A stretch of DNA of 64,000 nucleotides from Eledone cirrhosa (taxonomy: Eukaryota): the NCBI GenBank assembly GCA_964016885.1, contig OZ024759.1, forward strand, positions 20,336,001 to 20,400,000. The letters are read 5' to 3'. Position numbers and translations under genes: made by a program. Position 1 is the stretch's first letter. Each line of letters starts with the position of its first letter. Below, piece by piece: positions 11,381 through 61,974 of this stretch. A model generated the notes under the pieces. It was not told the origin of the DNA. It saw only the letters and a list, made by a program, of their open reading frames with translations, and did no database searches.

Positions 11381-11431
11381 AGATTCTACAGGACTAGAAC
11401 TGTTTCATTCTTTAGAAATCATCAGGAATCT
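11381..11431 (-). ncRNA. Type I hammerhead ribozyme motif (family H1) in a Penelope-like pLTR fragment (11365-11730)
   Basis: Minus strand: AGATTC-CTGATGA-TTTCTAAAGAAT-GAAA-CAG TTCTAGTC CTG-TA-GAATCT; stems I and III pair, GUA site. Confidence 0.75.
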
Positions 11432-11452
11432 GGGTATCAAAAAATAAGTACG

Positions 11453-11515
11453 GTATTTATAGGTCTCTTCAGGTGGTAGGAGAGGGTGGGGAGTGGGATG
11501 GGTGTAGGTCATTGG
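11453..11515 (-). promoter_or_regulatory. Putative pLTR promoter: CCAAT plus TATAAATA upstream of the hammerhead
   Basis: Minus strand CCAAT (11511-11515) and CTATAAATAC (11453-11462), about 22 nt upstream of the HHR. Confidence 0.4.
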
Positions 11516-11744
11516 TTGCTAGAAAAGGTATATATATATAAGTATTGAAGTTTCCGTTGAAAATTGAAAAAGTCAGAGGAATGAAGAGTGCTCTATGTAA
11601 GTTACAGAGCTAAATATTTACATTGCCTTGTCTGATGAACGAATGCGGACGTGTCTTTTATTCGTCTTATTCAGGAAACCTCTGGTAATGAGGTAATTAT
11701 ACTGTATTGTTTATTATACATTAAATATATATATATATATATAG

Positions 11745-12375
11745 AAAAATGTTGTCAGATCTGGTTGAGAAAGTGGAGGATTGAAATTTGAGAGCTTATC
11801 TCTGGATTCCTCCCCTAGTTTCTCCTACCCTTGATGAATTATATTTTTGCTAAACAATTTCACTTGCGATAGATTTAGGATGTAGTCTCTATCTATCATT
11901 TCCCTTTTTACTCCCTTCTTTGCTAATTCATAAGCTTTCCTATTTCCCCTAAAATATTTATAGCCTGGTATAAAAATCAATGTCGTGTTTATTATTCTCT
12001 AAGAGGTAGTAATCTATTCTTAGCAGAGCATTCTCAATATCTCTAACACAACCCCTTTATCTTGAAGCCCCAATTCTATGATAGGTTCAATAAATTATCA
12101 GTAAATAGAAAGCCTTTTACCCCATGGTATTCATTTAGTTGAATCTATGGATAATATAATTCCCCACCACTCCACACCAAACATTGTGAAATCACGATAT
12201 AATCTAAAGCTCATAGCTTTATTTTTGAAAAACCAAGCAGCTCCACACCCAACTCCATTGTCTGAGTGTGTCCCATCTCTGAAACTCACCCAGTTGTTAA
12301 AACTGATTAACTGTGTGATAATGTTAGGGAATTTTTTTACTTCCTCTTTTGAGTTTTTAGTCATTAATTCAAACG
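11745..12375 (-). mobile_element. RNase H domain of the same I/R1-group LINE (degenerate)
   Basis: FRDGTHSDNGVGCGAAW...SFRL...TMFGVE and IFIPGY...GNRKAYELAKKG correspond to the RNase H motifs DGS..G.G.G, AE and W.P.H.GI.GNE.AD.LAK. Confidence 0.75.
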
Positions 12376-12380
12376 AATAT

Positions 12381-12972
12381 CATCATCATCATCATCATCA
12401 TCATCAACGTTTAACGTCAGTGTTCCACGCTTGCATGGGTTTGGACGGGGGTAGTCCCACTTGAGGCAAGAGTGATTGTCTTGCTCGCATAGGACTGTCT
12501 GGCAGGTTTTCTACAGTTGGATGCCCTTCCTAACACCAACCACATTTACAGTGTGGGTCTGGGAGGTTTTTACCGTGTTGCCTACACGGCCACATTACAG
12601 CGTGGACTGTGTGTTTTTTTGTCGTGACACCTACACGATCTCATTTGTTTCGGCCTGGATGGCGCGGCACCAACATAACTTTACATAGAATGGGGTGGTG
12701 TGGATGGGGTGGGGGTGGTGGTGGTGGGACGGGGGTGTATTTTGTTATATATATATGTATCATCATCATCGTTTAACGTCCATCTTCCACGCTAGCATGG
12801 GTTTAGACGGGAATTGTCCCACTTGAGGCAAGATTGGTTGTATAGGACTGTCTGGCAGGTTTTCTACGGGCTGGATGCCCTTCCTAACACCAACCGCGTT
12901 TACAGTGTGGACTGGGAGGTTTTTACTGTGTTAGCTACACGGCCACATTACAGCGTGGACTGTGTGTTTTTT
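12381..12972 (-). mobile_element. Two tandem 3' halves of the (GAT)n-tailed SINE
   Basis: CATCATCAT..CGTTTAACGTC...GGATGCCCTTCCTAACACCAACC at 12381-12690 and 12760-12972. Confidence 0.8.
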
Positions 12973-58519: not shown

Positions 58520-59500
58520 CACACAGACCACCACACACACACACACACACAGACCACCTCACACACACACACACAGACCACCGCACACACACATACACAC
58601 AGACCACCTCAGTCACACACAAACCACCTCGCACACACCCACAGACCACCTCGCACACACACAGACCACCTCGCAGACACACAGACCACCTCGCACACAC
58701 ACAGACCACCTCGCACACACACAGACCACCTCGCACACACACAGACCACCTCGCACACACACAGACCACCTCGCAGACACACAGACCACCTCGCACACAC
58801 ACAGACCACCTCGCAGACACACAGACCACCTCGCAGACACACAGACCACCTCGCACACACACAGACCACCTCGCACACACACAGACCACCTCGCACACAC
58901 ACAGACCACCTCGCACACACACAGACCACCTCGCACACACACAGACCACCTCGCACACACACAGACCACCTCGCACACACACAGACCACCTCGCACACAC
59001 ACAGACCACCTCGCACACACACAGAGCACCTCGCACACACACAGACCACCTCGCACACACACAGACCACCTCGCACACATAGACATCCTCACCCACACAC
59101 AGACCACCTCACACACACAGGCCACCACACATACACAGCACCACACACCCACAGCACCACACACACATTACACAACACCACACACACACATTACACAACA
59201 CCACACACATATTACACATCACACCCACACACATATTACAAAACACCACACACACACATATTACAAAACACCACACACACACATATTACAAAACACCACA
59301 CACACACATATTACAAAACACCACACACACACATATTACAAAACACCACACACACACATATTACAAAACACCACACACACACATATTACACAACGCCACA
59401 CACACACATTACACAACGCCACACATTACACAACACCACACACACATATTACACAACACCACACATTACACAACACCACACACACACACTAACACACACA
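58520..59500. repeat. 20-bp minisatellite ACAGACCACCTCGCACACAC (~23 copies), then a 23-bp ACATATTACAAAACACCACACAC repeat
   Basis: Direct reading. Confidence 0.95.
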
Positions 59501-59639
59501 TAGCCACAATACAACAGATACACACGCTACCATAGAATCTAACATGAAAGGATGGAGACAGTAATGAAAGGTAGACAAACATCAACAGTCTTAAAACTAT
59601 TTTTGGATTGGAATAAATGATTTGGTTTCAGTTCAACTT

Positions 59640-60765
59640 TGTTGTTGTTGGTGCTGGAGTTGTTGTTGGTGTTGTTGTTGGTGGTGGAGTTGGTGTTGGT
59701 GGTGCTGGAGTTGTTGTTGGTGGTGTTGTTGTTGGTTTTGTTGTTGGTGGTGGAGTTGTTGTTGGTGCTGGAGTTGGAGTTGTTGGAGGTGGTGCTGGAG
59801 TTGGTGTTGGTGGTGTTGTTGTTGGTGCTGGAGTTGTTGTTGGTGTTGTTGTTGGTGGTGGAGTTGGTGTTGGTGGTGCTGGAGTTGTTGTTGGTGGTGT
59901 TGTTGGTGGTGGTGTTGTTGTTGGTGCTGGAGTTGGTGTTGTTGTTGGTGCTGGAGTTGTTGGTGTTGGAGGTGGTGTTGGTGCTGGAGTTGTTGTTGGT
60001 TTTGTTGTTGGTGCTGGAGTTGTTGTTGGTGTTGTTGTTGGTGGTGGAGTTGGTGTTGGTGGTGCTGGAGTTGTTGTTGGTGGTGTTGTTGGTGCTGGAG
60101 TTGTTGGTGCTGGAGTTGTTGGTGTTGGAGGTGGTGTTGGTGCTGGAGTTGTTGTTGGTGCTGGAGTTGTTGTTGGTGTTGTTGTTGGTGGTGGAGTTGG
60201 TGTTGGTGGTGCTGGAGTTGTTGTTGGTGTTGTTGTTGGTGGTGGAGTTGGTGTTGGTGGTGCTGGAGTTGTTGTTGGTGGTGTTGTTGGTGCTGGAGTT
60301 GTTGTTGGTGCTGGAGTTGTTGTTGGTGTTGTTGGTGGTGGAGTTGGTGTTGGTGGTGCTGGAGTTGTTGTTGGTGGTGTTGTTGGTGCTGGAGTTGTTG
60401 TTGGTGCTGGAGTTGTTGTTGGTGTTGTTGTTGGTGCTGGAGTTGTTGTTGGTGTTGTTGGTGCTGGAGTTGTTGTTGGTGGTGTTGTTGGTGCTGGAGT
60501 TGTTGGTGGTGTTGTTGGTGCTGGTGTTGGTGCTGGAGTTGGTGTTGGTATTGTTGGTGATGTTGTTGTGTTGTTGGTGCTGGAGTTGTTGTTGGTGGTG
60601 GTGGTATTGGTGTTGTTGGTGCTGGTGTTGTTGGTGTTGTTGGTGATGTTGTTGGTGATGTTGTTGTTGTTGTTGGTGATGTTGTTGTTGTTGGTGATGT
60701 TGTTGTTGTTGGTGATGTTGTTGGTGATGTTGTTGGTGCTGTTGTTGGTGCTGTTGTTGGTGTTG
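59640..60765. repeat. (GTT/GGT)n array punctuated by GCTGGA
   Basis: Trinucleotide-phased array; long ORFs in most frames. Confidence 0.9.
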
Positions 60766-61041
60766 GAAATTTCAAAAATTGGTAGAGCAAAAAAGAGCAA
60801 CAAACAATACATCTTTAGATATAAACAAAATAGCATTAAGACAGATATGTTTAAATAATTGTATTTATTTCATTATACACATTTCAATGACATGATGGAT
60901 GGTTATGTAATGGTTATATCATTAATAGGCACAGCTGTGATATCATGAAATATTAACACAATTACTTGAAGAGGTTATGGCATGTTATGTCACTGGCAAA
61001 GTTATACTATCCTGATTTAAATTGAACACACATACATATAT

Positions 61042-61652
61042 ATGGTGGCTGCCAACTCATTTTCGAGTACGGCCACTACTTTATATCCATGTAGGAGAAC
61101 CCCTACCGATGCGCTGAACGAGTGTGACTTTTTAGTCCAGCCAGCGACTTGAAAACTCTGGTACAAACACTACACTTGTGACAATTATTGACATATAGTG
61201 CTGGGCCCATGGTACCATGTGATGACAAGTGCAGAGAGATCTCCAGATATAAAGCAATGCCTGTGCCGTGAAGCTTTTATAGTGAGCAAAGGCACTGCAC
61301 AAAGCCAGTCCCACTCTCTTAACCAAGATGATATTTACCAAAAAGAAGAACAAGTCAACATCATTGGATACCATCAGGGTTGTAGGTGTTATATCAGAGT
61401 TTTCCTTCTCCTAGAATTCTGCCTTGACAAAGGCTAAGGGGTCATATCTCCCGGTGATTTTGGATGGCCATTGACTCTTAAGAGCTCCCTTGCCCTTTGA
61501 CAGGTTTTGTTTTTAGTCCTGCAGGATGTCCAAAGTCACCCTCCTCACCAAGAAACCTTGGTGGGGTTGCCAGTTTAGTCGCCAACGACCCGACCATGAG
61601 ACAGGTTGTACTGGGATACATGTTACCAGTAGCACCAACTGGTGACCTGACA
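61042..61652 (-). mobile_element. Full copy of family R
   Basis: Near-identical to 13729-14339. Confidence 0.85.
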
Positions 61653-61929
61653 TAACACACATATATATATATATATATATATATACATATATATTGGTAA
61701 AACACTGGGTGAATATATCCGTAGTTAGAGCACTCAGTCCATAGGATGAGTTTGGTATAAAGTTAGTTCCACAACAAATTAGCTGACCATATATATATAT
61801 ATATATATATATATATATATTTCGTTTCTGAATTTGTTTAGCAAGATTCTTTATCTGAAATCGTGTGTTGAAACCGAATGGCGTAGGACAGAACAAAGGA
61901 GAGGCACAGAAACAAAGAAAGGAATCCCC

Positions 61930-61974
61930 AGTCACTGAAGAGGTCACAGAGTGTGTGACGAAAGAACTATGACT
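61930..61974 (+). ncRNA. Minimal type I hammerhead motif (family H5)
   Basis: AGTCA-CTGAAGA-G-GTCAC AGAGTGT GTGAC-GAAA-GAAC-TA-TGACT; stems I and II pair; one extra G; very short stem III. Confidence 0.65.

Follow-up and report, generated by a model that had tools for sequence, protein, structure and literature searches.

Of five hammerhead families examined in the window, the 64,000-nucleotide stretch of DNA analyzed here, four represent short terminal parts of ordinary Penelope-like retrotransposons (PLEs) inserted into (TA)n, and not a radiation of elements that lack open reading frames (ORFs). We consider it probable that the copies are dead-end PLE insertions into (TA)n, from at least four families, and that their palindromes come from two run-off cDNAs joined head to head. 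A sharp 5' edge, a TATA-like box and a non-templated G together suggest, at the level of sequence, that the short palindromes are paired run-off cDNAs that end at a capped start site.

Results

Hammerhead cores in the window

The original prediction listed six core sites, and all are present on the strands named, at 11381-11431(-), 18084-18152(-), 25865-25964 (both strands), 49719-49832(-), 51346-51460(+) and 61930-61974(+). The motifs at these sites have the core boxes, three helices and UH site of a type I hammerhead; hammerhead numbering, TATA and Inr follow what we take to be their consensus. A strict type I descriptor, composed after the candidates had been seen, matched four loci (11425-, 18145-, 25908- and 25920+), as compared to at most one in dinucleotide shuffles, with means of 0.06 in 100 whole-window and 0.12 in 100 block-wise shuffles and a count of four reached in none of 100. 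The descriptor misses family F3, with its bulged stem I, and family F4, with a 1-bp stem III; these are supported instead as dispersed repeat families with intact cores. No hammerhead model occurred among the 150 of 642 rows listed from an Rfam scan of the window, all being microsatellite or hairpin matches to miRNA-type models.

When isolated motifs were folded, only those with long stems were more stable than their shuffles (F3 copy at 49714, z of -2.4; full-length H2, z of -2.6); z was -0.2 to -1.4 for F1, F2, F4 and a motif at 11632, and +0.2 for the second F3 copy. In the flanks, eight short motifs of other families, related to one another and picked by core pattern, carried double changes at 9 of 13 pairs and a covariation score above that of 500 of 500 shuffles. 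F1 compared with one relative gave a single covarying pair, and 158 of 500 shuffles scored equally high. The stem III palindromes proposed for most families hold only in part: F2 and F3 have a true palindrome, F1 and H2 a palindromic loop core only, and the F4 stem III is not palindromic, as its self-duplex is at +1.4 kcal/mol.

Copies in the window

F1 is represented by a direct 3' end (11366-11528, -), 5'-truncated and without a tail, with (TA)n on both sides and a hammerhead at 11381-11431. Upstream of it, a TATA-like box at 11454-11461 is spaced by exactly 30 nt from the A at 11431, the position at which most F1 arms stop. The second F1 copy (25849-26047) is a short palindrome (25849-25981) in which two 65-bp arms, both with a complete hammerhead, meet head to head, and one arm has a 66-nt tail (25982-26047); its plus arm starts at the edge A (25914), and the copy is predicted to fold as a single hairpin of -115 kcal/mol. 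At F1 3' ends, contigs from two runs of unrecorded kind had a steep fall in depth upstream of the core; depth summed over contigs does not measure copy number, and it was not used.

H2 forms a short palindrome with an 80-nt tail (11126-11329), whose palindromic part (11206-11329) has only the 3' half of the ribozyme, both arms ending inside stem II. A second short palindromic copy, of an older subfamily (62152-62345), also holds half a ribozyme, and a third (10045-10162, +) joins a partial inverted tail to a direct half ribozyme. The half motifs reported for H2 are present, and derive by truncation from a full ribozyme whose core is of the U3-A8 type. The full ribozyme was confined to long copies (13 of the 62 arms, with 1,349 exact matches of a 30-mer), and its core is nearly fixed except for a freely variable position 7. 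A CUGANGA box upstream of the half motif was considered as the parent and rejected, the 40 matches being junction fillers or chimeras with ribozymes of other families.

The F2 copy (18053-18326, -) is a 3' end whose hammerhead (18084-18152) has a palindromic stem III; an inverted tail and a 20-nt stub (18213-18326) precede it. The F3 motifs at 49719(-) and 51346(+) are real, but belong to a single old inverted insertion (49590-51491). Its two arms, at about 49590-50190(-) and 51223-51491(+), both carry a hammerhead with a long stem II. This insertion, which has an inverted arm and a tail, holds later insertions and belongs to an old low-copy family with about 50 candidates at 72-87% identity and five exact matches to a core 21-mer. 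F4 is a 3' end (61821-62126, +) in which the inverted last 55 nt of a tail are followed by a direct arm; its hammerhead (61930-61974) is minimal, with an extra base between 9 and 10.1.

A further (TA)n-embedded element (11541-11724, +; core at 11632), with relatives at other loci, carries a hammerhead at 11623-11693(+) that was overlooked at first; an ORF for it was not found. The relics fared unevenly. That at 35055 is a decayed copy (35050-35128, +) of another minimal-hammerhead family, with a mutated second core box and 21 BLAST hits among the examined loci. The relic at 9738 is a weak match to the same family (one hit, 78% over 50 nt), and those at 37515 and 45290, with no CUGANGA and no BLAST hits, are unconfirmed.

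Parent elements

The window itself contains no PLE ORF, as had been stated, in that tblastn with five PLE proteins gave no hit; none that passed the filters lay within 10 kb on each flank. The proposal of a non-coding, retrozyme-like radiation does not stand for four of the five families examined, since F1, F2, F4 and H2, at other places in the genome, run upstream into their own reverse transcriptase (RT) plus GIY-YIG ORFs in the same sense. What these four families do bear out is the association of Penelope type I hammerheads with (TA)n and inverted partial pLTRs. A cognate ORF (at least 70% identity, same sense, within 1.5 kb upstream) was found for H2 at 11 of 30 full-core and 5 of 30 unselected loci, for F4 at 8 of 30, for F2 at 3 of 30 and for F1 at 1 of 30. 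The F1 ORF lies further off, beyond an internal microsatellite, and is linked at loci L161, L163, L167 and L331. For F3 the count was 0 of 30, the single match belonging to a neighboring element. Sampling was confined to the first megabases of contig C1 and to exact motif matches, so that old copies are under-counted; exact matches per family number 14,563-55,430 for F1, F2, F4 and H2.

Locus L337 is a whole unit of inverted pLTR, pLTR, ORF and pLTR with a 3.6-kb period. Partial-tandem pLTRs, an inverted 5'-truncated copy and an optional tail recur at L337, L167, L160 and L154. Each family has two discrete 3' ends, tailed and tailless, and some copies cross the cleavage site unbroken. An intact master copy was not found, and the ORFs read were all truncated or frameshifted.

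Pfam hits to RVT_1 and GIY-YIG were weak and below curated cut-offs at L154 and L167, with none for L160; assignment to endonuclease-bearing (EN+) PLEs is due to motifs and homologues, not Pfam scores. The H2 protein has N-terminal DKT and RWR motifs of the Hydra type; F1 and F2 ORFs were recovered without their N-termini, so that DKT and RWK-type motifs were read in H2 only. A CxCx5C linker is found in H2 and F1, and only Cx5C in F2. None of the three has a cysteine pair of canonical spacing between GIY and YIG, F1 having two single cysteines there. These proteins are 34-40% identical to one another and unrelated to that of F4 by BLASTP. By these protein sequences F1, F2 and H2 are assigned to the Hydra clade, the H2 motifs having been matched to Hydra-1_Obim by eye. 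The F4 protein, from L154, combines a CX2-5CxxC linker with a CCHH endonuclease, which places it as another C-terminal-endonuclease PLE, of the Neptune or Nematis clade.

The 5' edge

Arms of F1, F2 and H2 stop at one pyrimidine-A step, less sharply in H2. In genome-order samples, 59 of 87 F1 arms ended no more than 26 nt from the second core box, 33 of them at 23-26 nt and only 2 at 27-40 nt; 10 of 30 F2 arms ended at 103-113 nt; and 47 of 62 H2 arms ended within 22 nt. A (TA)4 lay within 190 nt 3' of 82 of the 87 F1 and 59 of the 62 H2 arms. Tails were carried by 39 of 87 F1 and 29 of 62 H2 arms, and among the pairs listed, one arm was tailed in 7 of 8 for F1 and 4 of 4 for H2. The distance between F1 arms, 13-63 nt in the genome-order sample, varied from copy to copy.

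F1 and H2 have a TATA-like box 30-31 nt upstream of the edge. The upstream sequence examined was 560 nt for F1 and 700 nt for H2, and in each the one TATA/Inr pair spaced by 28-33 nt is that on the edge. The non-templated base before the edge was G in 1,868 F1 junctions versus A or T in 416, and G in 6,014 H2 junctions versus A in 997, C and T being unusable there as both are templated in H2 subfamilies. One base further into H2 the preference was lost (G 1,948 versus C or T 6,230). Among 20 H2 G-junctions read, the G could be the next base of the partner arm in 6 and a tail base in 1.

Several observations weigh against run-off. Of the short H2 arms, 12 of 47 pass the proposed +1 by 1-7 nt. 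F2 has no TATA box at its edge, and its G excess is modest (2,111 versus 2,151 for A or T, counted at a single position). The F1 G is also expected from fold-back on stem I, and several junctions have 2-3 fold-back bases. A sharp 5' edge was absent among 30 F4 arms. An F4 promoter built on motifs that we take to be YY1-, NRF1- and ETS-like, near its short ends, was rejected since the 5' ends are spread, and F4 is not counted as support.

Discussion

A model for the short palindromes

The edge would be a transcription start in the upstream pLTR. The PLE protein is envisaged to nick both target strands, with reverse transcription beginning at two internal sites of the RNA; the two cDNAs, primed on opposite target strands, would run off the capped 5' end of the RNA and then be joined head to head into a palindrome. 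Starts on the 5' pLTR of the RNA would give run-off products of 60-200 nt, and those on the 3' pLTR long truncated copies. The extra G would be the copied cap; an extra G at full-length L1 5' junctions has likewise been ascribed to the cap in the available text of PMC11702581. Nicking of both strands and two internal RT starts have been demonstrated in vitro for a single element, of the Poseidon clade (PMC11167929). The ribozyme is predicted to serve the parent transcript, in 3'-end or multimer processing, probably as a dimer or with protein help, and palindromic copies are predicted to fold into one long hairpin and not to cleave; short H2 copies lack the catalytic core altogether. We lean slightly towards a strong-stop-like PLE product, in which both starts lie just 3' of the upstream-pLTR ribozyme, both cDNAs reach the cap and are ligated, the fossils map start sites, and the H2 start lies inside the ribozyme. 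The 5' end of an H2 transcript could then not self-cleave, and its 3' copy could.

A PLE origin is kept if the 5' edge is instead set by RNA or cDNA structure, through RT stalling at the ribozyme or cDNA fold-back on stem I. The edge of F1 falls on the 5' strand of stem I, with fold-back bases at junctions, the H2 edge is near the loop of the stem II inner hairpin, and the available text of Arkhipova et al. 2013 (PMC3846280) puts junction palindromes down to self-priming. Nevertheless, the F2 edge lies beyond the ribozyme, some 69 nt upstream of its catalytic core, stalling would be expected at the entry to a helix and not its exit, and the TATA-like boxes at -30/-31 and the position-specific H2 G are left unexplained. 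We regard this reading as unlikely.

Much less likely still is that the palindromes of about 200 bp are self-propagating non-autonomous elements, retrozyme- or SINE/MITE-like, copied whole by PLE enzymes. Short copies outnumber long ones, F1 and H2 each have at least 40 near-identical copies (96-100% identity by BLAST), and vertebrate non-LTR retrozymes are proposed as pLTR-derived in the part of bioRxiv 10.64898/2026.07.22.740005 at hand. However, in the genome-order samples the center varies between copies (the 13-63 nt of F1), subfamily variants are common to both arms while centers differ, short copies have lost the TATA-like box and those of H2 the core, and tandem arrays of short units were not seen. 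Long inverted repeats are unstable, and this instability would favor short copies being longer insertions later reduced by deletion or inverted-pLTR recombination, as solo pLTRs. Rotifer solo pLTRs are ascribed to recombination or deletion in the same partial source (PMC3846280). Deletion does not explain a one-base stop in both arms or a non-templated G, and identities of 96-100% mean that the copies are young; we give this reading hardly any credence.

Run-off from a capped start remains our preferred account. In a literature made up mostly of open papers, no account was found that explains the short PLE palindromes by a start site or a cap. The sharp, G-marked 5' edge gives a base-level prediction on inverted-pLTR formation and on the role of the ribozyme in PLEs. 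If true, tens of thousands of genomic fossils would map the start site of each family to the base, and the H2 asymmetry would account for both the purpose of the hammerhead and the origin of inverted pLTRs. The scale is also considerable: in a genome of 3.0 Gb, exact motif matches of these four families alone exceed 100,000, and many copies are perfect inverted repeats of 60-110 bp that would be double-stranded RNA if transcribed.

Comparison with known systems

Truncated PLE ends with hammerheads have been described throughout animals, and one family of the Hydra clade has already been reported in an octopus. The available text on this (TA)n-targeting, hammerhead-bearing clade, with its octopus member Hydra-1_Obim (PMC8557442), describes features shared here: a C-terminal GIY-YIG without CCHH, the CxCx5C linker, DKT and RW(K/R), and a layout of (TA)n target, hammerhead near the 3' end, inverted 5'-truncated copy and tail. 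The supplement of Craig et al. 2021 (PMC8557442), as far as it was available, has no match to any of six queries taken from F1, F2, F4 and H2 (five DNA motifs, one peptide), and the families are thus different ones. By the same partial account, the unit is longer here (3.6 kb at L337 versus less than 3 kb), as are the tails (66-94 versus 30-40 nt), and stem II of up to about 70 nt, the U3-A8 core of H2 and 10^4-10^5 copies are unlike that clade.

Cervera and De la Pena 2014 (PMC4209133), in the text available, report type I motifs in many distinct families per genome, mostly single and in truncated PLEs, with opposite-strand pairs 100-700 bp apart, an extra base after 9, a palindromic stem III and a U3-A8 variant, all as here. 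In contrast, stem III of F1 and H2, at 4-5 bp, is predicted to be able to form in a monomer. That available text leaves the stop of arms at one position without account. A 2026 repeat annotation of Octopus vulgaris describes Penelope-like families as recently active; the words 'hammerhead', 'ribozyme' and 'palindrom' are absent from its main text.

Metazoan non-LTR retrozymes, from the available parts of PMC7229834 and bioRxiv 10.64898/2026.07.22.740005, are likewise short, low in GC and PLE-related, with a type I hammerhead. They are head-to-tail tandems with a ribozyme per unit, expressed as circles. The copies described here, unlike these, stand singly or head to head and pass without a break into elements that bear ORFs. 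Head-to-tail ribozyme units were not found among the window rows listed, and at the genome positions listed, nearly all neighboring matches are either dispersed or paired on opposite strands.

The Poseidon element PAc (Frangieh et al. 2024, PMC11167929) shares two internal RT starts that bound the tail, extension of both strands, an AT-rich target and uncleaved RNA as template; it is of another clade, and its main text is silent on the 5' junction, the cap and head-to-head joining. L1 twin priming, as the available text of PMC11702581 has it, shares two cDNAs, the use of both target strands to give an inversion, and an extra G that marks the cap-reaching cDNA. In L1 the two cDNAs copy different parts of the RNA, whereas here both would copy the same 5' stretch and so yield a palindrome.

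Results

Hammerhead families of the window

The original prediction placed six hammerhead cores at 11381-11431(-), 18084-18152(-), 25865-25964 (both strands), 49719-49832(-), 51346-51460(+) and 61930-61974(+), and all were recovered there; a relaxed descriptor added one that it had overlooked, at 11632(+). The expected excess over shuffled sequence was confirmed with a strict type I descriptor, composed after the candidates were known and escaped by families F3 and F4: 4 loci were found versus 0.06-0.12 in dinucleotide shuffles, a number reached in 0/100 shuffles under either of two shuffle types. 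In 1.07 Mb of genome loci the relaxed descriptor gave 413 matches versus 14-21 in three shuffles, with 31 groups occurring in at least two loci; as these loci overlap and were chosen with hammerhead queries, the figures measure diversity and not genome density. Of the four proposed relics, the one near 35055 belongs, in decayed form, to a different family, which the one near 9738 weakly resembles; those at 37515 and 45290 are unsupported. The palindromic stem III or loop ascribed to most elements is seen in stem III itself for F2 and F3 and in the loop core for F1 and H2, and fails for F4. Strong stem covariation was seen between flanking motifs of sister families, which are related and were picked by core pattern, and could not be demonstrated inside the young families of the window.

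Genome-wide exact motif matches (3.0-Gb assembly, both strands), which tally arms, or single copies of the hammerhead-bearing terminal repeat (pLTR) end, rather than insertions, numbered 18,294 for F1, 14,563 for F2, 20,429 for F4, 55,430 for the H2 3' half, 1,349 for the H2 5' core (a longer, stricter pattern) and 5 for F3; reversed patterns gave 0. Best matches of F1, F2 and H2 lie at 94-100% identity, and F3 relatives at 72-87%. What the H2 half motif lacks is supplied upstream, where a long stem II and a UUGANAA core occur, with any of the four bases found at position 7; all three stems of this full form appear in the predicted minimum-energy fold.

Tandem-repeat masking covers ~43% of the window (27,448 bases), and several interspersed SINE-like families (100-240 bp, 75-97% identity; 1469-1650, 21899-22088, 44291-44484, 24083-24403, 25581-25816 and others) account for a large share of the sequence outside microsatellites. 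A (TA)n-flanked 608-bp repeat (13729-14336, 42762-43212, 61042-61649; 97-98% identity), frequent in other loci and with an older relative at 17511-17883, yielded no hammerhead core; nor does the near-perfect palindrome of ~270 bp at 47249-47519 contain one. Nested in an old F3 insertion, a ~720-bp element with terminal inverted repeats lies between TA dinucleotides (50484-51206); its ends suggest a mariner/Tc1-like element.

Linkage to coding elements

All four young families (F1, F2, F4 and H2) are 3' ends of coding Penelope-like elements (PLEs), an identity of which we are nearly certain. A link to RT plus GIY-YIG ORFs was made for each of them elsewhere in the genome and, as predicted, no PLE ORF was found in the window. 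The ORF is reached within ~200 nt from F4 and across an 800-nt 3' UTR from F2. The F1 ribozyme-ORF link (L161, L163, L167, L331) is hidden because an internal microsatellite between ribozyme and ORF has expanded and gathers other PLE ends; at L167:2100-4400 this TA/TG tract, inside the 3' UTR, has grown to >2 kb. A same-sense cognate ORF lay within 1.5 kb upstream at 11/30 full-core and 5/30 unselected H2 loci, 8/30 F4, 3/30 F2, 1/30 F1 and 0/30 F3 loci. A complete unit is seen at L337, in the order inverted pLTR, tailed pLTR (the tail being the optional 3' extension of an arm), ORF, pLTR. None of the element ORFs examined is intact. Among named sequences, one element protein has its best homologue in Octopus vulgaris (68% identity), which points to a probable octopod host.

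Seven loci (L199, L202, L208, L213, L215, L221, L226), found with a pattern selecting for such junctions, are chimeric: right after the catalytic core of a hammerhead of F4 or another family, the sequence changes to the 3' half of H2.

Arm ends

In genome-order samples anchored on the 3' motif alone, the 5' end lies no more than 26 nt from the second core box in 59/87 F1 arms (at 23-26 nt in 33) and at 27-40 nt in just 2 others; for H2 the distance is at most 22 nt in 47/62 arms, 35 of which do not extend past the A at 15, and for F2 it is 103-113 nt in 10/30 arms. The 30 F4 arms are spread out, with no sharp edge. The edge base in F1, H2 and F2 is an A preceded by a pyrimidine. By consensus, a TATA box starts exactly 30 nt upstream of the F1 edge and a TATA-like box 31 nt upstream of that of H2; within the 560 nt (F1) and 700 nt (H2) searched, no other TATA box and Inr lie 28-33 nt apart, and the F2 edge has no TATA box. 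The F4 pLTR carries successive ETS-, NRF1- and YY1-like motifs (L126, L127, L129 and L135, just upstream of the hammerhead; window 61876-61883), a series seen in TATA-less promoters.

The non-templated base before the edge was G in 6,014 H2 cases versus A in 997, as against 1,948 G versus 6,230 C/T one position further in; F1 gave 1,868 G versus 416 A/T, and F2, counted at this one position, 2,111 G versus 2,151 A/T. Two 3' ends occur in each family, one tailed and one tailless, and among the arm pairs listed a single arm has the tail in 7/8 for F1 and 4/4 for H2. An 11-nt motif, a possible signal for protein binding or for the start of reverse transcription, is common to the F1 and H2 tails, the F1 3' UTR and stem II of F3 relatives (25996-26006(+), 11172-11182(-), 62198-62208(-), 10088-10098(-), 15247-15257(+)).

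Discussion

Retrozymes are described as head-to-tail arrays (PMC7229834; bioRxiv 10.64898/2026.07.22.740005). In the window and at the listed genome positions almost all copies occur alone or as head-to-head pairs, with an inter-arm distance that varies between copies; these features, and the continuity of F1, F2, F4 and H2 into coding PLEs, led us to abandon for these four families the originally predicted non-coding or retrozyme-like elements. Subfamily variants are common to both arms of a copy and centres differ, which, with the variable spacing, fits palindromic copies formed anew at each insertion.

How they might form is suggested by the arm edges, TATA boxes, extra G, 3' ends and PLE/L1 parallels. 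The transcript would begin in the upstream pLTR, initiation on the 5' pLTR copy would yield cDNAs running off at the cap, and two such cDNAs, one from each target strand, would be joined head to head. A Poseidon PLE in vitro extends both target strands on an uncleaved RNA template, with two internal start sites flanking the tail (PMC11167929), and an extra G at full-length L1 5' junctions reflects the cap (PMC11702581). Fold-back on stem I, visible at some F1 junctions, would also explain the F1 extra G; at 7/20 H2 G-junctions examined the G is obtainable from the partner arm or tail, and 12 short H2 arms reach 1-7 nt beyond the proposed +1, where the sequence is rich in T. We judge the full cap run-off mechanism somewhat likelier to be right than wrong. 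Start sites within pLTRs were already known; in a rotifer pLTR putative TATA/Inr motifs have been noted, palindromes there being explained by self-priming and solo pLTRs by deletion (PMC3846280). No published link between short PLE palindromes and the start site was found in a search that covered the subscription literature in part.

The most likely substrate of the ribozyme is the parent transcript. From hairpin energies, F2, F3 and F4 are predicted most likely to cleave as dimers, and F1 and H2 may be able to do so as monomers. Every copy crosses the cleavage site unbroken, so that the template would have been uncut or religated. The window copies are probably inert, because the F1 palindrome would make a single 65-bp hairpin and short H2 copies are without the catalytic core.

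The H2 core matches the U3-A8 hammerhead variant of PMC4209133, and one subfamily combines C3 with A8. The H2 protein has RWR, DKT and CxCx5C and is without CCHH, which are Hydra-clade features in PMC8557442, and aligns by eye to Hydra-1_Obim of its supplement, where (TA)n targets and hammerheads are recorded for this clade. The F1, F2 and H2 proteins share 34-40% identity with one another; that of F4, unrelated to them by BLASTP, has a CxxC linker and CCHH, as in Neptune/Nematis. F1, F2, F4 and H2 are real and abundant, yet are additional examples of an already known PLE type.
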